NCBI GenBank assembly: GCA_003220155.1
Contig: QHRO01000239.1
Span: forward strand, 22 to 64,021
DNA length: 64,000 nt
Direction: 5' to 3'
DNA from: Verrucomicrobiota bacterium
GTDB taxonomy: Bacteria > Verrucomicrobiota > Verrucomicrobiia > Chthoniobacterales > UBA10450
The notes under the pieces were generated by a model. That model did no database searches. It was not told where the DNA came from and worked only from the letters and a program-made list of their open reading frames with translations. This document shows, piece by piece, positions 14 through 23,022 of the stretch (position 1 is its first letter; each line of letters starts with the position of its first letter). The translations under genes were made by a program, and so were the position numbers.

Positions 14-598
14 GTGATGTTACTCTGCGGACTCGCGTTTGACGTGCCGCGACATCCCGATCTCATGAGCGCTCCGTGGCGTACCAATGTGCTCGAACCA
101 ATCGCCATTAGCTGCCTGGCGTGGCTCACGCCCGGATTGGGCGGCATTCCGGGATGGCTTGACCGGACGAGCCGCTATCTTCTTGCATTTGCGCTCATCA
201 TCTTTGGCATCGCCCACTTTCAGGTTCTCACCTTCATTGCCAGCATGGTGCCCGGCTGGATTCCCTGGCACTGGTTCTGGACTGTTTTCTTCGGCGTAGC
301 CTTCATCGCCGCGGGCGTAAGCTTCGCCACTGGATTTCTGCAGCGGTGGGCGGCTTTAGGTGTGGGACTGATGTTCGCGCTCTGGACCGTAACAATTCAT
401 CTGCCGCCTGTTCTCAACTTTTTCCGCATCCCCGGCGCAACTCAAGACCCGAACAAGTGGTCGGACGTCTTCATTGTCGTAGCGCTATGGGGAGGCTTCT
501 GGGCGCTGTTGCGCGATAGAAGAGATTTAAGCTTCGGGGCACATTCGAATCGGGCTAACCAGACGTTGCGGCGAACCGCGGACTGTTCACATGCGTAG
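14..598 (+). CDS. DoxX-like integral membrane protein (may be 5' truncated by the window edge)
   Basis: 194-aa ORF with no in-frame stop back to position 2. Four hydrophobic helices (LLAFALIIFGIAHF, FWTVFFGVAFIAAGVSF, LGVGLMFALWTVTI, VFIVVALWGGFWALL). Family call from memory only. Confidence 0.45.
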   Translation: MMLLCGLAFDVPRHPDLMSAPWRTNVLEPIAISCLAWLTPGLGGIPGWLDRTSRYLLAFALIIFGIAHFQVLTFIASMVPGWIPWHWFWTVFFGVAFIAAGVSFATGFLQRWAALGVGLMFALWTVTIHLPPVLNFFRIPGATQDPNKWSDVFIVVALWGGFWALLRDRRDLSFGAHSNRANQTLRRTADCSHA

Positions 599-662
599 GA
601 TTCACACCTTCATGAAAGCCCACTTGCAATTCGCGCGCTGGCTGATCTTTTTCTCGTTAGGG
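553..662 (+). repeat. attC-like site (degenerate)
   Basis: GGCTAAC at 553-559 overlaps the 3' end of the first ORF, and GTTAGGG is at 656-662. CTAACCAG and CTCGTTAG are partly complementary. Confidence 0.3.
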
Positions 663-735
663 GTCAACTGTCGCAGATAAATAGATTCGCAAACCAATCA
701 AGATTTAAGTTTATTTTATTTCAGAGTATCAATAA

Positions 736-1167
736 ATGAACAAAACGAAGTCTAAGCCGGCTGCAGAAGAATCAGAGGCCACACTGCCAGTGGATCTTCG
801 CAAAGCTCTCGCGGCTGCCCCGGTGGCGAAGGCTCAGTGGCGGGATCTTACGCCGATCGCGCGCAGGGATTTTATTAGTTGGATAGACTCGGCCAAACAA
901 CCGGAGACACGTAGACGCAGGATCGAGAAAGCCTGCTCGATGCTTGCGGCTGGAAAGCGACGCCCCTGCTGTTATTCAATAGTGTCATTGAGTCTTTACA
1001 CAGCCCTCGCGGCAACCCCGATGGCGAAGGCTCAGTGGAGCGATCTCACGCCAATCGAGCGCAGGGACTTTATTAGTTGGATAGACTCGGCCAAACAACC
1101 GGAGACACATAGACGCCGGATCGAGAAAGCCTGCTCGATGCTTGCAGCGGGAAAGCGACGCCCCTGA
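736..1167 (+). CDS. YdeI/OmpD-associated family protein, internally duplicated (two tandem domains)
   Basis: The motif AKAQWxDLTPIxRRDFISWIDSAKQPETxRRRIEKACSMLAAGKRRP occurs twice. This matches the C-terminal YdeI/bacteriocin-protection domain as I remember it. Confidence 0.7.
   Translation: MNKTKSKPAAEESEATLPVDLRKALAAAPVAKAQWRDLTPIARRDFISWIDSAKQPETRRRRIEKACSMLAAGKRRPCCYSIVSLSLYTALAATPMAKAQWSDLTPIERRDFISWIDSAKQPETHRRRIEKACSMLAAGKRRP
808..1166 (+). repeat. Tandem direct duplication, period 198 bp
   Basis: 808-968 and 1006-1166 are near-identical. Copy 1 has TGC where copy 2 has the TGA stop. Confidence 0.85.
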
Positions 1168-1531
1168 TGTTTTTCAATCTCTGAAGTGGTCCAATCTCGA
1201 GCAGCCGGAGGGCAACCAAGTGCTCGTCGTATAGGCGCAATTCGGCCGTGTCTTCGTGTATCACAACGGTGCGCAGTCTTACTATAGCGCCAGGGCGTTC
1301 CGTGGCTCGCTAAGGGTCTAGATTTATACCGTGAATTTAGCATTTCTTGAGGTTGGGGAAGTTTGTCGTCTGGAAGAACTGTTTTCAGATCCCTGTCGAT
1401 TGGGAAATCGATGCGCTGCAGCGAACCCAGCACTCTGTTGCGATCACCGACAACATGTGCACCTTAAATGTCAAAGTGCTGGGTCATGATTAAACTATTT
1501 CCAGAGATAGCCAGCCCCGAATGCTTTCGGG

Positions 1532-1614
1532 GCTGAGCTTGAGTTCGTTAAGTGCACTCAGCAGCAGCGACGCTGCAGTGAACCCGTGAGCAGTTGAGCT
1601 TGAGCTCGTTAGGC
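1532..1614 (+). repeat. Two direct copies of an attC right end (L'-R')
   Basis: GCTGAGCTTGAGTTCGTTAAGT (1532-1553) and GTTGAGCTTGAGCTCGTTAGGC (1593-1614), 61 nt apart. The left partners are unclear. Confidence 0.35.
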
Positions 1615-1640
1615 TCTTTTTGTGTAATCCTAGACCACAC

Positions 1641-2318
1641 ATGGGCTTCGATACTGCAGTCAAGTTGACCATCTACACCTTTACGGCTGAATCGGGCCGC
1701 ATTCCGTCAATCCAGGCCGTGGCTCAGCGCGTCCAGACCTCGACCGACGAGGTCGCTCAGGCCTATGCCCGCCTTCGCGCCAGTCGCCTCCTCTTTCTTG
1801 AGCCTGATGGGACTACCATCCGCATGGCTCCGCCATTCTCCGGCGTGCCTACCCAGCATCGCGTTGTCGTCGACGGCATCGAGTACTTTGCTAACTGCGC
1901 ATGGGACGCTCTCGGGATTCCCGCAGCCCTTCATCGTCCGGGAACGGTCCGCTCGCGGTGCGAACAGAGCCACGAACCGCTGAATCTGTCTGTCGGTCTC
2001 ACCGGACCTGAGCCTTCGACGTGGCTCTTTCACTGCCTGGTCCCTGCGGCCAAGTGGTGGGATGATCTGGTCTTTACCTGAAACAATATGCTCTTCTTTC
2101 GGTCGGAAGAACTCATTCGAGAATGGTGCAGGGCCCGAGCGGTCGAGCCCCGACCGATCGTGCGAATGGACCAATTATGGCAGCTGGCAGTGACTTGGTA
2201 TGGCGCCCGGCTCGAGCCCGTCTCCCGTCGCCCGGCAGCCAATGAGATGCGCGAGATCTTCGCCAGGCTCGGCCTGCACGACGCCTTTTGGGATCCCCAG
2301 GCAGACACCTTCCAGTGA
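1641..2318 (+). CDS. MerB-family (alkylmercury-lyase-like) protein with in-frame TGA at 2079-2081: candidate selenocysteine codon, or a nonsense mutation
   Basis: ORFs 1620-2081 and 2088-2318 share one frame. They are separated only by the TGA stop and two sense codons (AAC AAT). YFANCAWDALGIPAAL resembles MerB LYAWCALDTLIFPAL (Cys96/Asp99). VFT-TGA-NNMLFFRSEELIREW resembles MerB SFCCHVHFFASVPTAEDW (Cys159). Confidence 0.6.
2088..2124 (+). promoter_or_regulatory. SECIS-like hairpin downstream of the in-frame UGA
   Basis: Upper stem 2094-2100 (UUCUUUC) pairs with 2105-2111 (GGAAGAA): 7 bp including one G-U. The loop at 2101-2104 is GGUC. The stem starts 12 nt after the UGA. A possible lower stem is AUGCUC (2088-2093) with GAGAAU (2119-2124), which has one mismatch. 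Confidence 0.45.
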
Positions 2319-2325
2319 GAACGCA

Positions 2326-2418
2326 GCCTAACGACACGTATAGAGCGTGAGGTATCTTACTCGACAATGCCTCGCCTCCTCTCAAAGTGCCGGGTCCCTG
2401 GCCTTTTGCTCGTTAGGC
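2326..2418 (+). repeat. attC-like recombination site (93 nt)
   Basis: GCCTAACGA (2326-2334) is perfectly complementary to TCGTTAGGC (2410-2418). It starts 8 nt after the MerB-like stop and ends 11 nt before the next ATG. Confidence 0.6.
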
Positions 2419-2429
2419 ACAAGGGATTT

Positions 2430-2897
2430 ATGAACCAGATAATTGTACTCGCTGCAAATTTGGCGCTGGTCGCAGGGTTCGCTTCGGCGCAACCGGGGTC
2501 ATCAAAACTCGACACAGGAAAGGAATTGGTTGCCCAGCTTTATAAGGAACACTCTGGAAAGTCCGACCCATTGCAGTACCCAGCCAGCAAGAAACTACTT
2601 CCAAACTATTTTTACAAACCGCTCCTTGACCTCTATCTTAAGGACCAAGAGGACTCAAAAGGCGAAGTAGGTAAGATCGACTTCGACCCCCTCTACAATG
2701 CGCAGGATTTTGAAATCTCGGCTTTCAAGCTGGTCGTGCTCCCTAATAAAAAAGGCTCAGCGTACGTGGCCGCCCGATTTAAGAATATAGGGGTCGACCA
2801 AGAGATCATCTTCGCACTTCAGCGAACGAAAATGGGATGGCGCATCGCTGACATTCAATACCAGGACGGGCGTTCGCTTTGGAAAATATTGAAGTGA
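2430..2897 (+). CDS. Secreted DUF3828-like protein
   Basis: Signal peptide MNQIIVLAANLALVAGFASAQ. Contains DFDPLYNAQDF and a C-terminal GWRIADIQ motif. The start was moved from 2367 to the ATG at 2430, because the upstream codons lie inside the attC site. Confidence 0.55.
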   Translation: MNQIIVLAANLALVAGFASAQPGSSKLDTGKELVAQLYKEHSGKSDPLQYPASKKLLPNYFYKPLLDLYLKDQEDSKGEVGKIDFDPLYNAQDFEISAFKLVVLPNKKGSAYVAARFKNIGVDQEIIFALQRTKMGWRIADIQYQDGRSLWKILK

Positions 2898-2907
2898 TAG
2901 GGCTTGT

Positions 2908-2985
2908 GCCTAACAACGCGCTTCAGTCAACGTCACGCCGCCGCTGCGCGTCGGTGTGGGAGCGGCTGAGCTTCGTACGTTAGAC
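2908..2985 (+). repeat. attC-like recombination site (78 nt)
   Basis: GCCTAAC (2908-2914) and GTTAGAC (2979-2985). Internal arms CTTCAGTC/GGCTGAGC and CACGCCGCC/GTCGGTGTG give an imperfect palindrome along the whole length, with unpaired bases. Confidence 0.65.
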
Positions 2986-2998
2986 GTTTCCCTTTCTC

Positions 2999-3493
2999 AT
3001 GAAACGACACTTCTTCTTGTCCGCCGCTCTCGTTGCCCTGCTCGTCATTGCCGAGGTAGCACTTGCGTCTGATGTGGCAGTTTCATCGCAGGCATCAAAA
3101 GATGAGCAAACCATCTGGGAACTTGAGCGGGCATATTGGCGCTACGTTCAGGAAAATGATTTGTCGGCCTATTCCGGCCTGTGGCACAAGGATTTTCTGG
3201 GCTGGCCGTCAGTCAGTGCCGCGCCCGTTCACAAAGACCACATTACAGACTGGATTACCTCGCAAACCAGTAAGGGACTGGCGTTCAAGACCGGTGAATT
3301 CAAACCCGCCTCGATTCAGGTTACTGAGGACATCGCGGTCGCATGTTACTGGATAACGTTTAAGTGGCTGGACAAGGATGGCAATGGAGCGGCGAATACC
3401 ATCCGTATCACGCACGCGTGGCGCAGGACCGGAAACGATTGGCGCATTATAGGTGGAATGTCCATGCCGGAACCCGACACTCCCCGCAATTAA
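2999..3493 (+). CDS. Secreted NTF2-like (DUF4440/SnoaL-like) protein
   Basis: Signal peptide MKRHFFLSAALVALLVIAEVALA. Pattern WELERAYWRYVQENDLSAYSGLWHKDF. Confidence 0.6.
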   Translation: MKRHFFLSAALVALLVIAEVALASDVAVSSQASKDEQTIWELERAYWRYVQENDLSAYSGLWHKDFLGWPSVSAAPVHKDHITDWITSQTSKGLAFKTGEFKPASIQVTEDIAVACYWITFKWLDKDGNGAANTIRITHAWRRTGNDWRIIGGMSMPEPDTPRN

Positions 3494-3683
3494 TATCACA
3501 ATGAGAAGGCCTAAAAAGGCGCCGCAGCCAACTCCAAAAGCCAGGTTTATACTGACCTCCGAACTTCTATTCTCTGATCTCTCATTTTATGCTCGCTGTC
3601 GGTAGCAGTAGCTGATCTTGTTTTTCATTGAGCCATTTTCCAGACCATCCAATCAGTTTTAACGAACAGCAAGAAAGAACATT

Positions 3684-4436
3684 ATGACAAAGACGCGCAT
3701 CCCGCTGCTTTTGGTTTTGCTTGGTTTAGCTGGTAACAACCAGTTTGTCCGCGCCGCCGATCCGGATCACGCCGACCAACCAATCGTTCCTCCCACTGAA
3801 GCGATCTCCCGGCTCAAACAGGGCAATGGACGTTACACCAAAGGCAAACCGCAGCATCCACATGAGTCGATCAACGAAAGAACACGGTTGGCAACCAACA
3901 GCTATGAAAATGCGAGCTTGATCTATCCGGACATGACAAAGCGGCGCGAGGAGCTGGCAAAAAGTCAGCATCCGTTTGCTGTCGTTCTTGGCTGCTCTGA
4001 CTCGCGTGTCCCGCCTGAGATCGTGTTCGATCAAGGGCTGGGCGATCTATTTGTCCTGCGCGTGGCCGGCAACGTGATCGACGATCACAGCCTGGGCAGC
4101 ATCGAGTACGCGGTCGATCATCTGTCCGTGCGCCTGATCGTGGTGCTCGGACATCAGCGCTGCGGCGCGGTCAAGGCTGCGAAGGAGACGATCGCTGCCA
4201 AAGGCGAGGCACCCGCTCATATCCAGTCGCTGGTCACGGCGATCCAACCAGCGGTTGAAGCGACAGTCCAAGGCGACCTCGAGACGACGGTGCGTGAGAA
4301 CGTAAAGAATGTCGTGCAAGCATTACGTTCATCCGCGCCGGTTCTCAAAGCCAAGGTTGATTCCGGTGAGCTCAAGGTGGTCGGTGCTTATTACAGTCTC
4401 GATACCGGGTCGGTCGCTTTCCCGGAAGAAAAGTAA
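3684..4436 (+). CDS. Beta-class carbonic anhydrase, secreted
   Basis: Zinc-ligand motifs GCSDSRVPPE and GHQRCGAV, plus an N-terminal signal peptide. Confidence 0.9.
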   Translation: MTKTRIPLLLVLLGLAGNNQFVRAADPDHADQPIVPPTEAISRLKQGNGRYTKGKPQHPHESINERTRLATNSYENASLIYPDMTKRREELAKSQHPFAVVLGCSDSRVPPEIVFDQGLGDLFVLRVAGNVIDDHSLGSIEYAVDHLSVRLIVVLGHQRCGAVKAAKETIAAKGEAPAHIQSLVTAIQPAVEATVQGDLETTVRENVKNVVQALRSSAPVLKAKVDSGELKVVGAYYSLDTGSVAFPEEK

Positions 4437-4593
4437 ACCGTTCACAAAAGCGTAAAGCCATGAGCATCGATAGAACTGAAATCATCACGTGGATTCTGTT
4501 GATGAGCGCGGTGCTCACAGTATTCGCCCTCGTCAAGCTGAGACGAGCAACCCGATGCCACGCTGTAACGCTATGACGCTCGGCGCTTATCCT

Positions 4594-4600
4594 CGTTAGG
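4594..4600 (+). repeat. GTTAGGC core site upstream of a small ORF
   Basis: CCTCGTTAGGC lies 10 nt before the ATG at 4611. A possible short partner is CTGTAACG at 4563-4570, but that span is too short for a normal attC. Confidence 0.3.
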
Positions 4601-4610
4601 CCTTCTTCAT

Positions 4611-4832
4611 ATGAAGCTAACCAATAACAGCTATACCATCTCGATCGGCACCAAGAATTTCACTGAGCGTTATTACCGCGACAAGGCCGGTTGGTTAAAG
4701 GTGAGCGCGCGCGGCCGAACGTTCCGGATGACGGCGGAGCAGATTCTGAATCATGTCCTGCCTGCGGTAGCCGGCGTTAAACCGAACCTGACCATTAAAG
4801 TGGAACATCGCGACGCAACTCTTTCAAAATGA
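4611..4832 (+). CDS. Hypothetical small protein (73 aa)
   Basis: ORF directly after a GTTAGGC core. No family recognised. Confidence 0.35.
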   Translation: MKLTNNSYTISIGTKNFTERYYRDKAGWLKVSARGRTFRMTAEQILNHVLPAVAGVKPNLTIKVEHRDATLSK

Positions 4833-4960
4833 ACGGCGCCTCTGCGAACCAGCGCATGCACGACCTCGTGAAGTCGTCCTACGCTGACCTCAACTCTCAC
4901 GGGTGGGCGCAGGCAGTGAGTTACACGACTGAGGACTGGGTCACATCAACTCGACCCCAA
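4829..4960 (+). pseudogene. Truncated N-terminal remnant of an SgcJ/EcaC-type NTF2-like gene
   Basis: HDLVKSSYADLNSHGWAQAVSYTTEDWV parallels VREVVKAFVANYNNGDFKNAPTYTTDDWV of the 5866-6297 gene. HIN follows in a shifted frame, then homology stops at the DUF4239 gene. Confidence 0.45.
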
Positions 4961-4985
4961 AGTGCAGGTCGAAATTACGACATGT

Positions 4986-5765
4986 ATGCAATTTCTACTT
5001 AATTTGCCGTCAGCGATCTCATTTCTGATTGTCTCGGTTATTACCACCGCGGTCGCACTAGCCGGACTTCGGTTTGTGCGGAAGAAATATTCGACCGAAG
5101 CGTTGAAAGAGAACCACGAAGTAGCAGCGATAATCTTCAATGCGTTCGGCCTGCTTTACGGGGTAGTCGTCGCTTTTGTGGTGTTTGTTACCTGGAGTGG
5201 ATATGACGACGCCACCAAGAATCTGCAATTGGAAGCCAACGAGATCGATGATATTTTTCACATCTCGAAAGCATTCCCTAGCCCTGTCAATAAAATTATA
5301 CAGCAAGGATTAATAGATTATACCGCCTCCGTTTATAATGATGAGCTGAAAAGAATGTCACAGGGCGACGTAAATCTTCATTCCAACCGAGCGATGGCGA
5401 GGCTTATTACGGTGTTTTACGGAATAGATGAGAAATCGATTTCCAACAATGAGCTGTATGCCGAATCACTGAAGCGAATAAATAACCTCGCTCAGTACCG
5501 CCGACTCAGAATATTTGCAGGCAAGAACGAGGTGCCACCTGTGATCTGGTTAGTCCTACTTGTTGGCGGGACGATCACAGTTTCATACGCCTTTTTCTTT
5601 GGAATGAAGAACATAAAGGCGCAGTACATGATTACGGCCGCGCTCACGGTAACGATCACGTTGATTTTATTTCTGATATATATTCTTGACCATCCCTTTA
5701 CAGGGACAAGCAAAGTTAGTACGGAGCCTTTGAAACAGGTGATGGAGATAGTGCAGAAAGAATGA
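4986..5765 (+). CDS. DUF4239-family membrane protein
   Basis: N-terminal TM helix, AAIIFNAFGLLYGVVVAFVVFVTWSGYDDA, and two C-terminal TM helices. The start was chosen at the ATG at 4986. Confidence 0.55.
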   Translation: MQFLLNLPSAISFLIVSVITTAVALAGLRFVRKKYSTEALKENHEVAAIIFNAFGLLYGVVVAFVVFVTWSGYDDATKNLQLEANEIDDIFHISKAFPSPVNKIIQQGLIDYTASVYNDELKRMSQGDVNLHSNRAMARLITVFYGIDEKSISNNELYAESLKRINNLAQYRRLRIFAGKNEVPPVIWLVLLVGGTITVSYAFFFGMKNIKAQYMITAALTVTITLILFLIYILDHPFTGTSKVSTEPLKQVMEIVQKE

Positions 5766-5865
5766 GGGCAACGCGTCTCCGTGCCTGTTAAAATTTCCCT
5801 GGATCGGTGTTCTGTGATGACCATCAAAGGATAAAATTGCGAAGCTTCTTCTGTCCGCAGCTGGC

Positions 5866-6297
5866 TTGCTATGTCTGCTTGGGGTTGCATGGGGCGCTGA
5901 CGATGAACAGCTAGTGCGAGAAGTCGTGAAGGCCTTCGTCGCTAATTACAACAACGGAGATTTTAAGAACGCACCTACATATACAACCGATGACTGGGTG
6001 CATATCAATCCGGGAGGCGGAATTACGAGAGGACGAGATGAAGGTCTTAAAGAGGTAAGAGCCATTCACAAGACCATGTTAAAGGGAGTCTCAATCACGA
6101 TCGACAACGTGACGGTTCACTTTGTAACGCCTGACGTCGCCTTGGTTGATGCAGTTCATACGAGCGATAGTTACGTAACGCCGGAAGATGGTGTGAAGCA
6201 CGAGAACGAAAGGCAGATAAAGACCTACTTGATAGTAAAGCGCAATGGCAAGTGGTTGTTGGTGCTTGACCAGAACACCATCATTTCCAATCCATGA
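5866..6297 (+). CDS. SgcJ/EcaC-family NTF2-like protein
   Basis: TDDWVHINPGGG ... NGKWLLVLDQNT. The hydrophobic leader continues upstream with no canonical start, so the start is uncertain. Confidence 0.65.
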   Translation: MLCLLGVAWGADDEQLVREVVKAFVANYNNGDFKNAPTYTTDDWVHINPGGGITRGRDEGLKEVRAIHKTMLKGVSITIDNVTVHFVTPDVALVDAVHTSDSYVTPEDGVKHENERQIKTYLIVKRNGKWLLVLDQNTIISNP

Positions 6298-6314
6298 ACG
6301 GTGTTCTGGGAGGA

Positions 6315-6424
6315 GGCCAACAGGATCGCTGGCCGGGTCAAGACATCGACAACATGACTACTGACCACAGACCACGAAGTATGCTCGCTTTCGCCGGCGG
6401 TAGCTGAGCTCCGTCTCGCTAGGC
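6315..6424 (+). repeat. attC-like site (degenerate)
   Basis: GGCCAAC at 6315-6321, 18 nt after the stop. GCTGAGCTCCGTCTCGCTAGGC ends at 6424, 11 nt before the next ATG. Confidence 0.3.
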
Positions 6425-6435
6425 GAAATTCCATT

Positions 6436-7052: not shown

Positions 7053-8426
7053 ATGCTGATGGCTTGCACTTCCTTGAAGCTGGCAGGGTGGGTTATTGCC
7101 GCTGCTATCGTTTTCGGCAGCGTCGGATGTAACCGATCGCGCGAGGACGCGCATGCGCGCGAAGTCGCAACCCGGGTTCGCACTGAGTTTCTGCATGCGT
7201 GGACTAATTACGAGAAGTACGCCTGGGGACATGATGCGTTAAAGCCGCTGAGCAAGACGCCGCAAGATTGGTACGGCCAATCGCTGCTGATGACGCCGGT
7301 CGATGCCTTGGACACGCTCATCCTGATGAAGCTGGATAAGGAAGCCGCGAAGGCGAAAGAGCTCATCGTGAAGAATCTTTCGTTCGATCGCGACGTTTAC
7401 GTCAAGAATTTCGAAATCACCATCCGTTTGCTCGGTGGCTTGCTCTCGAGTTATCAACTAACGAATGATAAACAACTGCTCGATCTGGCTGACGATTTAG
7501 GCAATCGGCTGTTAGCCGTTTTCAATTCGCCTACGGCACTTCCTTACGTTTACGTGAATCTGAAAACCGGCCAGGTTCGCGATGCGAAAACGAACCCGGC
7601 CGAGACGGGGACGCTGTTGCTGGAATTCGGGACGCTGAGCAAACTAACCGGTAAACCGATCTACTACGAAAAAGCCAAGCGTGCTTTGGTGGAGACATTC
7701 AAGCGCCGCTCGTCGATCGGTCTGGTTGGCTCGACCATCAACGTCGAGACCGGTGGGTGGATGGATGCAGATAGTCACATCAGTGGCGGAATCGATTCTT
7801 ACTACGAATATCTCTGGAAATGCTGGCTCTTATTCGGCGACAAAGATTGTCAGAAGATGTGGCACGCGAGCATTCCCGCGGTTAACAAATATCTTGCCGA
7901 CGAAGTCCGTGGCGAATTGTGGTACGGCCACGCCGACATGAACACAGGCAGGCTCACTGCATCGCAATATGGCGCGCTCGACGCTTTCTTTCCGGCTGTG
8001 CTGACGCACTCCGGCGACGTCGCGCGGGCGCGGCGACTCCAGGATTCATCGTTCAAAATGTGGAACATGCACGGGATCGAACCGGAGATCATCGATTACA
8101 AAACGATGCAGATTGTTTACAACGGCTACCATCTGCGTCCCGAGATCGTGGAATCGACCTATTATCTGCATCACTTCACACACGATCCGCGATACCGAAA
8201 GACGGGAGAGAAGATCTTCGAGGACTTTGTGAAATATTGCCGGGTGGATGCTGGCTACACCGCGCTTCAGGATGTGGTCACGAAAGCAAAGCGCGATGAA
8301 ATGGAAAGCTTCGTCCTGGCCGAGACCTTCAAATACCTTTATCTTCTCTTCGCTCCGCCGGATACTTTGGATTTCGACAAAGTCGTGTTCAATACTGAGG
8401 CGCACCCTTTGAGGCGAACGGATTGA
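7053..8426 (+). CDS. Glycoside hydrolase family 47 (class I alpha-1,2-mannosidase-like) lipoprotein
   Basis: EFLHAWTNYEKYAWGHDALKPLS, FEITIRLLGGLLSSY, ETGTLLLEFGTLSKLTG, ESFVLAETFKYLYLLF. Lipobox GSVGC. Confidence 0.8.
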   Translation: MLMACTSLKLAGWVIAAAIVFGSVGCNRSREDAHAREVATRVRTEFLHAWTNYEKYAWGHDALKPLSKTPQDWYGQSLLMTPVDALDTLILMKLDKEAAKAKELIVKNLSFDRDVYVKNFEITIRLLGGLLSSYQLTNDKQLLDLADDLGNRLLAVFNSPTALPYVYVNLKTGQVRDAKTNPAETGTLLLEFGTLSKLTGKPIYYEKAKRALVETFKRRSSIGLVGSTINVETGGWMDADSHISGGIDSYYEYLWKCWLLFGDKDCQKMWHASIPAVNKYLADEVRGELWYGHADMNTGRLTASQYGALDAFFPAVLTHSGDVARARRLQDSSFKMWNMHGIEPEIIDYKTMQIVYNGYHLRPEIVESTYYLHHFTHDPRYRKTGEKIFEDFVKYCRVDAGYTALQDVVTKAKRDEMESFVLAETFKYLYLLFAPPDTLDFDKVVFNTEAHPLRRTD

Positions 8427-8459: not shown

Positions 8460-8945
8460 ATGCAAGTATCGCGTTATTTATCATTGATTCTGCTCGGAAT
8501 GATTCTGGATAGTTGTTCTGAGCGACAGTTCGATTCCAAAACCGAAGGGGAAAAATTGTTGGCCAGGGACGCAGAATGGGCGGATCTCGCCACGGCAGGC
8601 AAGGATATCGAAAAGGTTGTCTCTTACTGGAGCGATGATGCTGTCCTCATTTTCCCGGGACAGCCTGTGCTCGAGGGCAAGGCGGCGATTCGTGCTTACG
8701 TTGCCGCCAGCTTTGATACCCCCGGATTCAAGATCCATTGGGTCTCGCAAAAACCTGTATTCTCCCCCGATGGCAAGCTTGCCTATATGCGCGGGACGGA
8801 CGAGCTCACTCTGCCTGGGCTAAATGGCGGTACGATGACGCTGCACCTTCGTGGAATATCGGTCTGGCGTTTGGATCCGGATAAGCAATGGCGCTGCGTC
8901 CTGGATATTTCAAATGAGGCACCGCCTACTAGCCCGAGCTCTTAG
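8460..8945 (+). CDS. NTF2-like (DUF4440) lipoprotein
   Basis: Lipobox LDSC. LLARDAEWADLATAGKDIEKVVSYWSDDAVLIFPGQP. Confidence 0.6.
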   Translation: MQVSRYLSLILLGMILDSCSERQFDSKTEGEKLLARDAEWADLATAGKDIEKVVSYWSDDAVLIFPGQPVLEGKAAIRAYVAASFDTPGFKIHWVSQKPVFSPDGKLAYMRGTDELTLPGLNGGTMTLHLRGISVWRLDPDKQWRCVLDISNEAPPTSPSS

Positions 8946-8975
8946 CCTGCGCGGCCTGTCCAATGGTCATTTGCT

Positions 8976-9035
8976 GTAGCGGCGGTCTATGACCGCCGAA
9001 ACTATCCGAAATCGGCGGTCATAGACCGCCGCTAC
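8976..9035. repeat. REPIN-like doublet: two inverted GTAG-headed hairpins
   Basis: GTAG CGGCGGTC TAT GACCGCCG, a 14-nt spacer, then CGGCGGTC ATA GACCGCCG CTAC. A second copy of the family is at 24091-24150. Confidence 0.85.
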
Positions 9036-9086
9036 AATTTTGCCTTATAGAACTTGGGTATCCCTTTCCCGCTGCCCACACCGAAA

Positions 9087-10532: not shown

Positions 10533-12281
10533 TCACTCATGGAGCCGGTAGGCTTCTACCAACGCGACACCGGTCGTACCGTTGTTTCCGCACACGATCA
10601 CGGTGTAATTCCCGGCGGCGAGCGAAGCGATGATAGCTGATTCGCGATTGTCAGTCGGGTTAAGCAATGTCGCTTTGATTCCTGTCGGCGTGTTGTCCTT
10701 CCAATCGTTGTCGAATGCGATCAAAGCTCCGTTAGCATCGCGCAATTCAAGGGTCGGATCTTGCAATGGTTGCGCAATTCCGAAACTGCCCAGTGTCGGT
10801 CCGATCGCACGCAGCACGATCACGGGTGGTTCGCCATTGCCGATAATCAATCCACCGATCAGGACATTCTCGCCCGTGCCAACGAAACCACGCGTACTGA
10901 GATTTCCGAAAATCGAGGTCGAGGCGTCTAATTGGTAAAGATCAACCAGCGCGACACCCGTTCCGCTATTTTTTCCGCTCACTACCGCGGTGTAAGAGCC
11001 GGGAGCGAGGGTGGCAATGATGGCCGATTCCAAATCATTGGGCGGAGCAAAACCGCTGGCTGCGATTTCGGTCTCTTGCCTATTCCGCCAATTGTCGTTA
11101 GAGTCGACTACAACGTTGCTGCTGTTAACTATGGTAATGGTTGGATCCGCCAGCGCGCCACTCACTCCAAGGGTGCTCAAGGTTGGCCCGAGCGCGCGCA
11201 CAATGACCTTTTTTGGCTGGTTCCCGCTAATAATGAAGCCAGCGATCAGCACATTTTGTCCGGTGCCAACCATTCCCCGGGACGAAATGTTGGTCGCTTT
11301 TCCGAGCGGCGCGATCGGGCCGCTCAGCAGTCGATTCGCTTCGTTGGCGAGCTCAAAATGACCACCAGTGGTCGGATGAATATCATCCCAGAAAAGATAT
11401 TGATCCGGATTGACCCCAGATGCGCCTTGGGCCGAATCAATTGTGTTGACGAAGTTGTAATGTGCGGGCTGGCCCAGGACACGGATCACATCGAGCCAGA
11501 CATCGAAGGGGTAAACCTGAATGGTAATCCCGCTCCCGTGGAGTCCGCTTTTGGTCGAAGCAATGACGGATTTGAGATGATCGCGATAAATCGCAGAAGC
11601 GTAGTCAAGTGCCAGGACCCGGGTTGGATCGCCGAAAGAATTTGGCACCGCGCCTAGGGGTGGAACATTGGGCACGAGGAAATTTCGGGCGCCAGCGTTG
11701 GCCAGCCGCACAATCAGACCTCCGACGCGATTAGCGGTGTCGATTACGCTCTGTGCGCTATGGTCATCAAAGAGATCGTTGCCGCCGCCCCAAAGAATGT
11801 ACAAGGCATTAGCGTCGGCGGCGTGGCTGGCCAGATAATCGTTAATTTGTTTGCCCATGTTATCGATGGTGATGGTGAAATCGCCACCGCCGAATGGAAA
11901 TGGGTTATTGATGATGGTTCGGTCTTGCGTGCCGTCCTTGGTGGTGGCGCCGCCAAATGCATAATCGGTTCCCCCATCGAGACTGTTTTTTGCGACTGCC
12001 AAACCGAGGAATGTTTTTTCCAGTTGCTCGTGCCAGGTACCGACATACAAATTTGCCGCCGGTGACGTGTTAGTATCGTCGGTAAACCGATAATCGCTGT
12101 AGTTGAAGTTACTGCTCGGATAACTGAAGCCAACCAGGTCGCGCGCGCGATGCGCGATGTTTCCATCATCAGAAAGGCTGTCGCCGAAAACGATGACCTG
12201 GGTAAATACCGGCGCCTGAGCGTTAACGAGAATTGGAGTCGCCAGAAAAATGGCGACGCTCAAAAGTTTTCTTATTCCCAT
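10533..12281 (-). CDS. Secreted SGNH/GDSL hydrolase with two tandem C-terminal ~120-aa domains
   Basis: Signal peptide, then VIVFGDSLSDDGN (GDSL block) and WDDIHPT. The C-terminal repeat is NxSxRGxVGTGxNVLIxGxII...ALGPTL...DPTxxxxN...NDNW...ESAIIAxLAxGxYTxxVxGxNxxTGVALV, present twice. Confidence 0.8.
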   Translation of the reverse strand: MGIRKLLSVAIFLATPILVNAQAPVFTQVIVFGDSLSDDGNIAHRARDLVGFSYPSSNFNYSDYRFTDDTNTSPAANLYVGTWHEQLEKTFLGLAVAKNSLDGGTDYAFGGATTKDGTQDRTIINNPFPFGGGDFTITIDNMGKQINDYLASHAADANALYILWGGGNDLFDDHSAQSVIDTANRVGGLIVRLANAGARNFLVPNVPPLGAVPNSFGDPTRVLALDYASAIYRDHLKSVIASTKSGLHGSGITIQVYPFDVWLDVIRVLGQPAHYNFVNTIDSAQGASGVNPDQYLFWDDIHPTTGGHFELANEANRLLSGPIAPLGKATNISSRGMVGTGQNVLIAGFIISGNQPKKVIVRALGPTLSTLGVSGALADPTITIVNSSNVVVDSNDNWRNRQETEIAASGFAPPNDLESAIIATLAPGSYTAVVSGKNSGTGVALVDLYQLDASTSIFGNLSTRGFVGTGENVLIGGLIIGNGEPPVIVLRAIGPTLGSFGIAQPLQDPTLELRDANGALIAFDNDWKDNTPTGIKATLLNPTDNRESAIIASLAAGNYTVIVCGNNGTTGVALVEAYRLHE

Positions 12282-12393: not shown

Positions 12394-13902
12394 CTAGCTT
12401 CCCAGAGCCCGCAGAAAATCGGCAAAGTTGGCGCTCTCGCGCATGGCGGCATTCAATCGCTTCAGACTTTCGTCGGCCGGTTCCGGCAGCGCGATACGTC
12501 GGGAACACCCGGCACCGGACAACACAATCTCATTCCATTGAATCGATTCGATCTGATCGGTGAAACGCGCAACCGCGCGCCCCCGGAAGAAAGCGCGTGT
12601 GGTTTCCGGAGGAGAAAAAATTGCGCGGCGAATCTCATCTTCGTTGACCACCCGCCGCATCGAACCCTGGCGCAGCAACTCATAATATAATCCGCGCTCC
12701 AGATCGATATTGTGATACTCGAGGTCAATTGCCTGCAGCCATGGATCGCTCCATTGTAATTTTTCCTCCTCCTGCAACTCGTTCAGCAGAAATTTTTTCG
12801 CTGCCCAATCCGCCCGATCGCGACATAACATCACGTCTCGCTCCAAGTCATTGAGGACGCTTTCCCATTCGCGCAAAATCCAACCGCGCTCCTCCTCATC
12901 GCGCTCGACCTTCTGTGCCGCGTTCAAATAAAGCCGCTGCACATCAATCGCGGAAATCTTTCGTCCGTCGCGCAACTCGATGATCCAATCATAATTCTGA
13001 TCGCGACTAATCGATTTCGCGGCGTCAATCGGTTGCGCGATTTCCAACTGCGGCGCTTTGCCGCACTCGATCAAATCCAGCACCAGCGCGGTCGTCCCCA
13101 GCTTCATCGCCGTCGCCCATTCACTCATGTTCGAGTCGCCAATAATGACGTGAAACCGGCGATACTTGTTGGCATCGGCGTGCGGCTCATCCCGCGTATT
13201 CACCAGCGGGCGGCGATTCATCGTGTCGATGCTGACCAGGACGCTAAAGAAATCCGCTCGCTGCGAAATCTGAAACACACCGGGCTGACCGGCCGCGCTC
13301 TCCGCTTCAATCCCCATCTTGCCGGCGCCGGCAAAAATCTGTCGCGTGATCAGAAACGGCAGGGCGCCCGCGACGATGCGATCCCACGGGATGTCGCGCC
13401 GCATCAGGTAATTATCGTGGCAACCGTAGCTGTGACCGAGAAAGTCGGTGTTGTTTTTGTAAAGCCGGACGTGCTCACCGTCCGACAAATGCGCATTCCG
13501 GCGTCGCGCGCATTCGGCCAGAATCCGCTCGCCCGCTTTTTCCTGGGCCACAATCTCACGTAACGTCGTGCACTCCGGCGTGGAATATTCCGGATGAGCG
13601 TGATCGTTGTAAAAACGCGCGCCGTTCGATAACACGAGGTCGCTCTTGATTTCCTGAAAGGTCAGCGGCCGGTTTTTATCGATCTCATAGTAGGCCGATT
13701 CATCCGCGTCCTGACGCAATTCTTTGGCCCGAAAACCGCGCGCATCGCGATGCGGATCTTCGTGGCCGTAATCCCATTTCATCAACGCGCCGTGCTCGGT
13801 ATAACTGCGCACCAGCGCGATCGATTCCGCGACCACGTCCACCGACTCCGCGCCGTCCAGCGTGATCCCATATTCCGTCTCCAACCCAAAGACGCGTTCC
13901 AT
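12394..13902 (-). CDS. Pup/UBact ligase-deamidase family protein (Dop/PafA type)
   Basis: MERVFGLETEYGIT N-terminus and a 502-aa length (closer to Dop than to PafA). The start was moved from 13998 to the ATG at 13902, because the extra 32 codons are translated heptamer repeat. Confidence 0.8.
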   Translation of the reverse strand: MERVFGLETEYGITLDGAESVDVVAESIALVRSYTEHGALMKWDYGHEDPHRDARGFRAKELRQDADESAYYEIDKNRPLTFQEIKSDLVLSNGARFYNDHAHPEYSTPECTTLREIVAQEKAGERILAECARRRNAHLSDGEHVRLYKNNTDFLGHSYGCHDNYLMRRDIPWDRIVAGALPFLITRQIFAGAGKMGIEAESAAGQPGVFQISQRADFFSVLVSIDTMNRRPLVNTRDEPHADANKYRRFHVIIGDSNMSEWATAMKLGTTALVLDLIECGKAPQLEIAQPIDAAKSISRDQNYDWIIELRDGRKISAIDVQRLYLNAAQKVERDEEERGWILREWESVLNDLERDVMLCRDRADWAAKKFLLNELQEEEKLQWSDPWLQAIDLEYHNIDLERGLYYELLRQGSMRRVVNEDEIRRAIFSPPETTRAFFRGRAVARFTDQIESIQWNEIVLSGAGCSRRIALPEPADESLKRLNAAMRESANFADFLRALGS

Positions 13903-13990
13903 CGTTCCGAAACATAGCGCGATACCAAACCACGCGAAAATTTTACGGCGCTTTATTGTCCTGAACCTCCGACCCACGACTCTGAAATCT

Positions 13991-14046
13991 CGATTCACGA
14001 TTCACCGATCACGATGCTCGATGCTCGATGCTCATAACCGATACCG
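13991..14046. repeat. Heptamer-periodic tract upstream of the Dop/PafA gene
   Basis: In the gene sense: AGCATCG x3, TGATCGG, TGAATCG x2. Confidence 0.8.
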
Positions 14047-21264: not shown

Positions 21265-23022
21265 TCAGATCACACCGCCAAGATTCGCGCCGCGCTGAGC
21301 GGCATTCGGGCGCACCGGCGCAATTTTCACGACGTACTCCGGGTCGTAATCGATCAGCTTCAGCCAATCTTCCGTGATGTCCGTCGGCGGGAAAATATCA
21401 TTTTCCGCGTATTCGGCGTGAAAAGACATTTGCAAATCCTGTTCGGTGATGCCTTCGCCAACTCCGGGCGAAACATCCAAGGGCGTTTCCCTTAAGGTTT
21501 CATCGCGGGATCCCTCGACTTCGCTTGCGCTCCGCTCGGGATGACGGGCAGTTTGATTCGCGATAGCGCGCTTGATCGCCATCCCTTTTGCCCGCTCAAC
21601 CACCGACGCGATGATGGCGCCGCTAATCAGGTTGCCGCGATACAAAACTTCTTTGCGCCCGCTCCGCAATGTCACTTCCAGGAATTTGTTCTCGTCGCGT
21701 TTGGCAAATTGCCAATCCACCAACCGTTCGATCAGCTTTTCAATCGCCGCCCCAATATTGTCAGCTTCTTTGGCCAGCGCGCCGTCGTACGGTAAATCGT
21801 TAGTTAAGTAAATCCGGTAGATTTCCCGCGCCCCTTCCTTGTTCGGACGGTCGACTTTGATTTTCCGGTCGATGCGGCCAGGGCGAAGAATCGCTGGATC
21901 GATTAAGTCGGCGCGGTTCGAAGCCAGAATAATGACGACGTCGTTTAGTGAATCGATCCCGTCCATCTCCGAGCAGAACATTGGTACCAAAGTCGAGAGG
22001 ATGTTGGAGTAACGCGAGGCGCGCCGCGTCCCGAGAATACTTTCCGCTTCGTCGATAAACAGGAATGGCATGAACCCTTCCCGGCGCTTCTCCCGTGCGG
22101 TCGCGAAAATTTCGCGCACCATCCGCTCCGATTCGCCTACCCACATGTTCAAAATCTCCGGGCCCTTCACGTGCATGAAGTATTCGCGGACGTCTTTTTC
22201 GGCTGCTTTCTCGCGCAACTGCCGAGTCAAATTGTAAGCGGTCGCCTTTCCGATCAGCGTCTTGCCGCACCCGGGTGGCCCGTAAAGCAGAAATCCTTTC
22301 GGAGTCGCATGGTGAAATTTTTCGAACAAATGCGGATGCAAGAGCGGCAGCTCGATCGCATCCTTGATCGCTTCAATGGCTCGCTCCTGTCCGCCGACCT
22401 TCGACCAGGGCAGTTCCGGCACGTTATCGAGATAATGCTCGTGCGAGCCGGGTGCCGACATCATTTCCAGCGCCATGCGATAATTGGAATCCACCCGCAC
22501 TTCGTCGCCTTGTTTCAGCGCCGTTTTCGCCAGCTGCGCGGAACGTTGCAGAACTAACGATTGCGTTCCGTGTTCATTGCCGACGCGTAGTCGATCGGTT
22601 CCGATCACTTCGGTAATTTTCGTGACCGGCCCGGCCGGTTCGAAGCCGAGATCGCCCACGATGACGAATGCTTCATTCACCAGCACGCGGGTCCCCTTTT
22701 TCAACTTCGCCATCGGAATTCGTGGATCGACATTGCAGTAATAATCCGCCCCGCCCACGACAATGTGTGCCGTCTCCTTGCCGACGTTGCCGAGAAAAGT
22801 GCCGATGCGATTGGCCGGCGAGGTCACCTTTTTGATGACTTCCTCAAGTTTCTCGATCGTTTGGCGTGCTTCGATAAAGACTTCTTCGCGCTGGCAAATT
22901 TCCATGCGCAGGTCGAGCAGCTCGCGACGCACGGCGTCGCCGGGCGGGAGTGTCGCGATTAAAAGATCGATGCGATCGAGCAAATCGAATTCCCTTTCTC
23001 CCTCGTGGCGCTCGTCGCTCAT
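21265..23022 (-). CDS. mpa: Proteasome-associated AAA ATPase Mpa/ARC homologue
   Basis: N-terminal coiled coil, OB-like VGGADYYCNVDP...VLVNEAFVIVG, Walker A GPPGCGKT, Walker B LFIDEAE. The C-terminal region DITEDWLKLIDYDPEYVVKIAPV resembles Mpa but ends NLGGVI. Confidence 0.88.
   Translation of the reverse strand: MSDERHEGEREFDLLDRIDLLIATLPPGDAVRRELLDLRMEICQREEVFIEARQTIEKLEEVIKKVTSPANRIGTFLGNVGKETAHIVVGGADYYCNVDPRIPMAKLKKGTRVLVNEAFVIVGDLGFEPAGPVTKITEVIGTDRLRVGNEHGTQSLVLQRSAQLAKTALKQGDEVRVDSNYRMALEMMSAPGSHEHYLDNVPELPWSKVGGQERAIEAIKDAIELPLLHPHLFEKFHHATPKGFLLYGPPGCGKTLIGKATAYNLTRQLREKAAEKDVREYFMHVKGPEILNMWVGESERMVREIFATAREKRREGFMPFLFIDEAESILGTRRASRYSNILSTLVPMFCSEMDGIDSLNDVVIILASNRADLIDPAILRPGRIDRKIKVDRPNKEGAREIYRIYLTNDLPYDGALAKEADNIGAAIEKLIERLVDWQFAKRDENKFLEVTLRSGRKEVLYRGNLISGAIIASVVERAKGMAIKRAIANQTARHPERSASEVEGSRDETLRETPLDVSPGVGEGITEQDLQMSFHAEYAENDIFPPTDITEDWLKLIDYDPEYVVKIAPVRPNAAQRGANLGGVI
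21447..21545 (-). mobile_element. 99-nt MITE-like repeat inserted in frame inside mpa
   Basis: In the gene sense: GTCATCCCGAGCGGAGCGCAAGCGAAGTCGAGGGATCCCGCGATGAAACCTTAAGG...GGCATCAC. It matches the intergenic copy at 31582-31665 (GTCATCCCGAGCGAAGCCGAAGGATCCCGCAGAAGTTACCTTAAAG...GGGATGAC). It encodes HPERSASEVEGSRDETLRETPLDVSPGVGEGIT. Confidence 0.7.

Follow-up and report, generated by a model that had tools for sequence, protein, structure and literature searches.

A conserved in-frame UGA and a downstream RNA hairpin predict a widespread selenoprotein clade within the organomercurial lyase (MerB) family

The DNA analysed here is a 64,000-nucleotide stretch of a Verrucomicrobiota genome (assembly GCA_003220155.1, contig QHRO01000239.1), hereafter the window, which carries at positions 1641-2318 of its plus strand a read-through coding sequence of the MerB family interrupted by an in-frame UGA. 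Translation of this segment gives 146 residues, a TGA at 2079-2081, 78 further residues and the true terminal stop, a TGA at 2316-2318, all in a single frame with one internal TGA; the full product would have 225 residues, with selenocysteine (Sec) predicted at residue 147. An initial annotation of the window had already described the open reading frames (ORFs) 1620-2081 and 2088-2318 as sharing one frame broken only by this TGA, and the translation bears it out. When a Cys is put at the TGA, the protein matches the Pfam family MerB (PF03243) with E=5.5e-30 and 104.4 bits, against a gathering cut-off of 27, and the match runs through residues 66-188 and profile positions 1-126 of 126, with the TGA inside the matched span. 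In phmmer alignments with sequences of the PDB (3f2g, 3fn8 and 5c17), the TGC codon at 1896-1898 (Cys86) corresponds to the MerB catalytic Cys96, and the GAC codon at 1905-1907 (Asp89) to the proton donor Asp99. The same alignments place the UGA, the predicted Sec codon, at the catalytic Cys159 of MerB (3f2g, 3fn8) and at the equivalent Cys of MerB2 (5c17), which reproduces with real tools the pairing of NCAWD with WCALD (Cys96/Asp99) and of the TGA with Cys159 that the initial annotation had proposed.

Shortly after the UGA, within the codons for F-F-R-S-E-E, the plus strand contains the core of a hairpin (2094-2111) of the kind expected for a bacterial Sec insertion sequence (SECIS; bSECIS for the bacterial form), with a stem formed by 2094-2100 and 2105-2111 and a GGUC loop at 2101-2104. 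The window stem, UUCUUUC/GGAAGAA, has 7 bp including one G·U and starts 12 nt past the UGA, so that sequence and fold agree with the hairpin as first described. According to the bSECIS structural model, the loop has 3-9 nt, the stem 4-16 bp, a G is present among the first two loop positions, and 16-37 nt separate the UGA from the loop (PMC13188914). The window hairpin, with its 4-nt GGUC loop, 7-bp stem and 19 nt from UGA to loop, lies within these structural limits. In the actual sequence of the E. coli fdhF gene, the UGA is codon 140 and is followed 11 nt later by a mini-hairpin with a GGUC loop, so that both the loop and the spacing of about 11 nt are as given in the initial annotation. As in the fdhF SECIS, the hairpin of the MerB-like gene is located inside the coding region right after the UGA and exposes a GGUC apical loop; the stem starts at 12 nt and the loop at +20, as compared to 11 nt and +19 in fdhF. 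Unlike the fdhF SECIS, however, the MerB-like element has a simple stem of 7 bp that lacks a bulged U, its closing pair is C-G in most members instead of A-U, and nothing in the family clearly corresponds to the lower helix of fdhF. A search of Rfam at the hairpin matched no known family.

The occurrence of the UGA was followed in a genome scan of one genome per species, which yielded 524 genomes with a relative, and the best 80 loci were read. These 80 metagenome-assembled genomes (MAGs) belong to Gemmatimonadota (36), Acidobacteriota (14), Verrucomicrobiota (11), Chloroflexota (8), Eisenbacteria (5) and others (6), with at least 10 phylum-level groups among them, and the closest genome relatives of the window gene come from a Candidatus Udaeobacter MAG (77% identity) and from Gemmatimonadales MAGs (75-76%). 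A TGA is found at the identical codon, 62 codons past NCAWD, in the 80 genome loci and in the window (81/81), the hairpin recurs in all 80 loci as well, and 7 distinct divergent metagenome copies likewise carry the TGA and the hairpin. Orthologues with TGC or TGT and no hairpin, which the initial annotation had named as evidence that would speak against a selenoprotein, were absent from these 80 loci, the window and the 7 divergent copies. In the window and in the 79 sequences compared, the UGA is preceded by Thr. Terminal stops in the same genes are mixed (TAG 30, TGA 25 and TAA 23, among the 78 genes with a readable stop), whereas the internal codon is always TGA, which indicates that the latter does not work as an ordinary stop. 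By these comparisons, the TGA is an ancestral trait of the family and not a lesion of the window copy.

A reassigned genetic code was also considered and is ruled out: TGA ends this gene, other genes of the window and 25 of the 78 homologous genes, in keeping with the earlier remark that genes of the window end with TGA at 2316-2318 and 8424-8426. A scan for further TGA-bridged ORF pairs in the window gave 38 candidates, none of them convincing by inspection.

At the protein level, a search of 5.8 billion proteins produced 4331 matches, and nearly all of the best 120 are proteins of 146-156 aa ending in ...DDLVFT at the TGA. The identical 146-aa product was found on 23 contigs of several soil metagenomes, with varying neighbours and with the downstream ORF kept. 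The public copies examined are annotated as an 'organomercurial lyase' or hypothetical protein of 146-156 aa cut at the UGA (HYT19253.1, for instance, is a truncated member named 'organomercurial lyase' in GenBank), and further public copies have Trp at the site or derive from frameshifted gene calls. In the case of P0002, a full-length database entry with Trp at the site, the DNA of the contig reads TGA (locus L081, 191-868), and the Trp comes from a Joint Genome Institute (JGI) gene call that rendered UGA under another genetic code. Three other entries (P0012, P0084 and P0009) seem, from protein sequence alone, to be gene calls that get around the TGA by a frameshift or some other alteration. 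These few full-length entries are regarded as artefacts, and none of them is evidence against the UGA.

The hairpin is conserved together with the UGA. The order after the TGA is two variable codons followed by ATG CTC TTC TTC CGG TCG GAA GAA, and an invariable in-frame spacer of exactly 2 codons parts the TGA from the conserved (M/I)L(F/L)FRSE motif; the consensus hairpin of the family is UUCUUCC-GGUC-GGAAGAA. Among 79 sequences, the synonymous choice over the hairpin is almost fixed, with CGG in 77, TCG in 77, TTC in 77-78 and GAA in 72, as compared to a control Arg codon 12 codons further on, where CGG (14), CGC (14), CGA (13) and CGT (10) alternate. Third-position conservation reaches 0.91-1.0 at codons +5 to +9, versus about 0.3-0.7 in most flanking codons, and the frozen synonymous positions are confined to the hairpin stretch. 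The few departures from the consensus are also informative: the closing pair, C-G in most members, is A-U in L039 (AGT TCT) and L073 (AGG GAT), and U-A in L095 (TGG TCA), at the cost of an Arg-to-Trp change, whereas the outer pair has turned from U-A to C-G in L015, L092 and L098, and L100 has a re-registered perfect stem (CUCUUUC-GGUCU-GAAAGAG). These exceptional sequences read as compensatory changes keeping the stem. Pairing holds in 95.4% of cells (44 distinct sequences), and shifting the partner by 1-3 columns lowers it to 70% or less; double changes occur at two pairs, in 6 cells altogether, and RNAalifold independently gives the same helix.

Downstream of the TGA, the sequence behaves as coding. 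The median ratio of nonsynonymous to synonymous substitution rates (dN/dS) is 0.287 after the TGA versus 0.286 for the 120 codons before it, so that the neutral 3' segment that had been raised as a possible refutation is not what the family displays. A structural model of the full-length homologue P0002 (64% identical to the window protein), obtained with AlphaFold2 on an alignment of full-length relatives, comprises a single domain with a predicted local distance difference test score (pLDDT) of 96.6 and a predicted template modelling score (pTM) of 0.92. The top 11 PDB matches of this model in Foldseek are all MerB or MerB2 (E 1.5e-11 to 1.7e-7), with template modelling (TM) scores of 0.6-0.72 over about 200 residues and no other significant PDB matches. 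The read-through protein is accordingly modelled as one MerB fold across the whole chain. Another AlphaFold2 model, on an alignment of mostly truncated sequences (A1), had a pLDDT of 63 and was set aside.

More distant relatives carry a Cys at the position of the UGA. A HMMER search with P0002 in 1.84 billion cluster representatives (50% identity) gave 1885 relatives, and the best 150 were classified: 83 terminate right at the site and are taken as putative Sec forms (about 70% to 35% identity to P0002), 31 run to full length and have Cys there, and 4 have Trp and are probably mistranslated like P0002. At the protein level, the 'Trp' representatives P0127, P0135, P0160 and P0197 may be the same artefact as P0002. 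In the Sec-form representatives, the last residues before the UGA are FT (60), YT (11), HT (4) or FN (3), the equivalent of Cys96 is kept in 80 of the 83 and that of Asp99 in 79. The Cys paralogues (P0122 and P0125, among others; 220-235 aa) resemble the Sec family in their full-length identity of 26-43%, in the motif ...T-C-x-T-(M/I)-L-L-F-R... and in the Cys at the Sec column, and they differ in having TGC for TGA, Arg and Ser codons other than CGG and TCG, and no hairpin. At the DNA level, the Cys forms L101 and L102 show TGC at the site and an Arg codon CGC, not CGG, and no hairpin is possible in them; TGC without the hairpin is confined to these more distant paralogous clades (26-43% identity). 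Such a division, with a catalytic Cys in some clades and a UGA with a hairpin in others, is what typifies bacterial selenoproteins. The Asp99 position is occupied by Cys in 12 of the 31 Cys-form representatives (alignment A2), whereas in Sec forms it is nearly always Asp, a difference that may point to another chemistry at the metal site of the Cys clades.

With a conserved UGA, a hairpin that is both conserved and compensated, purifying selection downstream, Cys homologues and a single predicted MerB fold, it is very likely that 1641-2318 constitutes one gene, whose product is a MerB-family enzyme of 225 residues in which the UGA at 2079-2081 encodes Sec at the equivalent of Cys159, and that the MerB-like family is a genuine selenoprotein family can be held with high confidence. 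The most likely pathway would start with the hairpin 2094-2111 acting as a bSECIS that binds SelB·GTP·Sec-tRNA(Sec). Sec would be inserted at the UGA (Sec147), and the ribosome would go on for 78 codons to the stop at 2316-2318. In the folded enzyme, an organometallic substrate would have its metal ligated by Cys86 and Sec147 and its carbon protonated by Asp89, resulting in protonolysis of the metal-carbon bond, as MerB does with organomercurials. We infer Sec decoding in the host of the window, and with it insertion at this UGA, and the lyase chemistry and the kind of substrate are likewise suggested by homology with MerB.

Several points weigh against this interpretation. Selenium incorporation and lyase activity of the product are, for now, predictions from sequence. 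Searches of the 64-kb window by tblastn with E. coli SelA, SelB and SelD gave no matches, tRNA-Sec is absent from the window according to ARAGORN and Rfam, and a Pfam scan of 20 large ORFs of the window detected no Sec machinery, all in agreement with the initial annotation, which had seen no selA, selB, selC or selD in the window. The ±10 kb flanks of the other loci, searched with the same tblastn queries and with ARAGORN, are also devoid of selA, selB, selC and selD, save for one tRNA-Sec at locus L060. Moreover, the gene could sit in a non-decoding host, because it is on a mobile cassette. As for the hairpin, the bSECIS model includes an energy criterion of -7.5 kcal/mol or lower (PMC13188914), and the core alone is borderline in this respect: it gives -7.5 kcal/mol for the family consensus and is weak by itself in the window copy, with its G·U (-4.6 kcal/mol), although the fdhF mini-hairpin, calculated in the same way, gives -4.2. 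The 62-nt fold that contains it (-12.6) is no stabler than shuffled sequences (z = 0.41). Part of the hairpin conservation reflects the protein, because the hairpin overlaps conserved codons, and the covariation rests on few sequences, with the 6 double-change cells mentioned above. Finally, mercury may not be the substrate, since the very strong Hg-Se bond might hinder product release.

The absence of Sec genes from the window of this host would also fit a read-through without selenium, in which the UGA is decoded as Cys, Ser, Trp or another residue, either by a SelB-like factor acting with a non-Sec tRNA(UCA) or by near-cognate suppression stimulated by the hairpin. Unusual tRNAs with a UCA anticodon (allo-tRNAs and tRNA-Sec-like tRNA-Cys) are reportedly present in soil Acidobacteria and other bacteria, which lends this explanation some plausibility. 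However, the GGUC loop is of the SelB type, the spacing is similar to that of fdhF and the structure falls within the bSECIS limits, an exchange between Sec and a catalytic Cys is the usual hallmark of selenoproteins, and a TGC codon would suffice for Cys, as it does in the paralogues. Moreover, a bona fide tRNA-Sec lies beside the MerB-like gene in L060, a Chloroflexia MAG, at 11178-11264 of the minus strand and 0.5 kb downstream of the gene according to ARAGORN; it scores 58.6 bits with Rfam RF01852, above the gathering score of 47, and is the only one in the 81 loci scanned by ARAGORN. Decoding without selenium is therefore regarded as improbable. Both Acidobacteria and Chloroflexi are known to contain selenoproteins (PMC1794560). 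As a separate observation on tRNA genes, ARAGORN calls in L059 (3526-3622, minus strand) a 97-nt 'tRNA-Gly (tcc)' with its anticodon at position 39, a call unconfirmed by Rfam at the gathering threshold.

A second explanation would take the UGA as a real stop and the locus as a split gene, with an N-terminal piece of 146 residues and a C-terminal piece of 76 residues (starting at the ATG 2088) that assemble without the third catalytic residue. An ATG is indeed present 2 codons past the TGA in 79 of 79 main-clade sequences, gene callers predict a separate 76-aa ORF, and the purifying selection downstream is equally compatible with two proteins. In the divergent members L094, L096/L097 and L099, however, ATC (Ile) replaces this ATG, and in L096/L097, whose contig is long enough, the frame is kept for 73 codons beyond the TGA; a restart after the TGA is excluded because divergent members carry Ile there. 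A split gene also has to contend with a stop that is invariably TGA and never TAA or TAG, though terminal stops are mixed, with a constant spacer of exactly 6 nt in frame, with the lack of any Shine-Dalgarno-like sequence before the ATG (as read from the sequence) and with the coincidence of the site with the catalytic Cys of continuous homologues, and it leaves the frozen synonymous sites and the compensatory changes of the hairpin unexplained. We consider this explanation very improbable. Equally slim are the chances that the nonsense codon simply inactivates the window copy in this host, leaving a dead pseudogene or a cassette that is not expressed, as its promoterless setting within an array, the Sec genes not found nearby and the lack of a clear ribosome-binding site upstream of 1641 might suggest, given that the TGA is ancestral to the family as a whole, that the 78 downstream codons are intact, as is the hairpin save for one G·U, and that the identical 146-aa product recurs on the 23 soil-metagenome contigs with its downstream ORF preserved.

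The insertion of Sec at the catalytic Cys of a MerB fold is, as a principle, already published. SaoL (NF040728) is a MerB-like organometallic lyase selenoprotein with a UGA-encoded Sec at MerB Cys159 and with the equivalents of Cys96 and Asp99 kept, and it is routinely annotated as truncated at the UGA (Haft & Gwadz 2022, bioRxiv 10.1101/2022.07.06.499078). This answers the question, left open by the initial annotation, of whether a Sec-containing MerB-like family had been described: one had, in 2022, and the window gene falls outside it. Like SaoL, the family described here has the Pfam MerB fold, the UGA aligned with Cys159 and the equivalents of Cys96 and Asp99. Unlike SaoL, which has a Cys-Sec (CU) dipeptide and is the marker of a conserved SAO locus of nine genes found in strict anaerobes (Clostridioides, Brachyspira, Syntrophobacter), it has Thr-Sec (F/Y-T-U) and is found mainly in MAGs of Gemmatimonadota, Acidobacteriota, Verrucomicrobiota and Chloroflexota. 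With NF040728, the window protein reaches 43.5 bits, under the cut-off of 140 and over residues 25-118 only, and no SAO neighbourhood was seen nor any conserved neighbours in 78 loci, in which the Sao families were not searched by name. The low score, the Thr-Sec pair, the lack of a SAO neighbourhood and the different taxa argue that the family is not SaoL.

With respect to canonical MerB and MerB2 (3f0o, 3f0p, 5c17), the family shares the fold, the aligned triad of Cys96, Asp99 and position 159, and a winged-helix-like N-terminal subdomain. It differs in its identity of about 20%, in the UGA instead of the Cys159 thiol, which would give a selenol if read as Sec, and in the lack of Cys160, and also in its location, chromosomal or cassette-borne, whereas canonical MerB belongs to the mer transposon or plasmid. 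The window protein stays well under the cut-offs of the MerB equivalogs (51.2 bits with NF033555, cut-off 200; 62.2 bits with NF009710, cut-off 193), and the MerB-like gene is therefore no equivalog of canonical MerB. An inventory of 2026 with 119 prokaryotic selenoprotein families has SaoL as its sole entry with a MerB fold, literature searches for an earlier description of the MerB-like Sec clade gave SaoL alone, and NCBIfam has no model for the family. The family can be regarded as a putative second, and much more widespread, Sec clade of the MerB family.

Such a family, widespread in soil bacteria and now represented in databases by truncated proteins, would be of interest for annotation, mercury biology and selenium biology. 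It would add a widespread selenoprotein to Gemmatimonadota, Acidobacteriota, Verrucomicrobiota and Chloroflexota, phyla barely mentioned in this regard in the two recent selenoprotein surveys consulted. Genes similar to merB serve as markers of methylmercury demethylation, and a Sec-containing, mer-independent soil clade would alter the reading of such counts. The role of a selenol at the metal site is a further question raised by the family, namely whether it would provide tighter Hg binding, accommodate another metal or offer higher nucleophilicity. A bolder and rather doubtful possibility is that selenium-dependent metal-carbon lyases form a large clade, with 524 species genomes and no fewer than 83 clusters at 50% identity, in mostly aerobic soil phyla (the same Gemmatimonadota, Acidobacteriota, Verrucomicrobiota and Chloroflexota) and act outside mer operons, which would imply either a widespread breakdown of methylmercury or other organometals that merB surveys mis-score, or an organometal(loid) substrate other than mercury. 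In this tentative scenario, the gene would be a self-contained selenoprotein module, because its SECIS is inside the ORF, and integrons would move it between Sec-competent hosts.

In the case of the window, the gene lies in a stretch (550-6430) that resembles an integron array, with short same-strand ORFs parted by attC-like sites that end in CTCGTTAGGC. The array ORFs are OmdA-like, MerB-like, SnoaL/DUF4440, beta-carbonic anhydrase and bestrophin-like. Upstream of the MerB-like gene, the preceding cassette is closed by an attC-like site whose 3' core, the recurring motif CTCGTTAGGC (1605-1614, plus strand), is the probable left boundary of the MerB-like cassette. Exact plus-strand copies of this core occur at 1605, 2409 and 4592, and one-mismatch copies at 653 and 6415, each of them just upstream of the next ORF. 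The probable right boundary is an attC-like site at 2326-2418 of the plus strand, GCCTAACGA ... TCGTTAGGC, with 9-nt inverted cores and 93 nt end to end; the cores fit RYYYAAC and GTTRRRY (GCCTAAC at 2327-2333, GTTAGGC at 2412-2418), and similar pairs exist around 553-662 and at 2908-2983 (GCCTAAC...GTTAG). Since this site begins 8 nt after the second stop, and not after the UGA, the cassette holds the whole read-through ORF, which would have been captured as a unit of the integron-like array; here, a cassette of the integron type would be the carrier of a selenoprotein gene. The attC-like sites were located by loose searches of core motifs, and a strict regex detector of attC (22-nt ungapped complementarity) found nothing. 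The initial view of the gene as part of an apparent mobile cassette is supported as regards the flanking attC-like sites, whereas no integrase turned up among the 20 large window ORFs scanned with Pfam; an intI gene may lie outside the window, because the array runs to its left edge.

An attC-like site after the stop codon is particular to the window copy (1 of 79 copies examined), and in the 78 other genome loci examined the gene is free-standing, chromosomal and without a mer operon. All-against-all clustering of the neighbours of 78 loci gave no family common to more than 8 of them and no conserved operon partners, and there were no Mer proteins among the Pfam-labelled neighbours, with no merA, merR, merT or merP nearby. 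The only operon-like setting seen for the family corresponds to L096 (2481-5954) and L097 (1773-5252), where a divergent Sec-form gene comes directly after a MlaE/ABC/MlaD/ABC_trans_aux transporter operon, with a divergent PadR regulator next in line.

Other features of the window can be mentioned. Within the array, the ORF with an OmdA domain (PF13376; 736-1167) contains tandem direct repeats of 196 nt (785-980 and 983-1178) that are 88% identical, and the repeat copy number varies, because the ORF has 143 aa or 77 aa in related metagenome contigs. Just after a SnoaL ORF (8460-8945), a perfect 25-nt inverted repeat with a 12-nt spacer (8975-9036) could be a terminator-like or recombination-site-like element. 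Glycoside hydrolase family 47 is mainly eukaryotic, and a gene of this family (alpha-mannosidase-like; Pfam E=1.9e-124) is located at 7053-8426. Finally, the large window ORFs correspond to ordinary chromosome, with a Pup ligase (PafA-like) at 12394-13998, a proteasomal AAA ATPase at 21265-23022 and a nuo (complex I) operon at about 24-37 kb, and the presence of the Pup ligase together with the proteasomal ATPase indicates that the host has a Pup-proteasome system.

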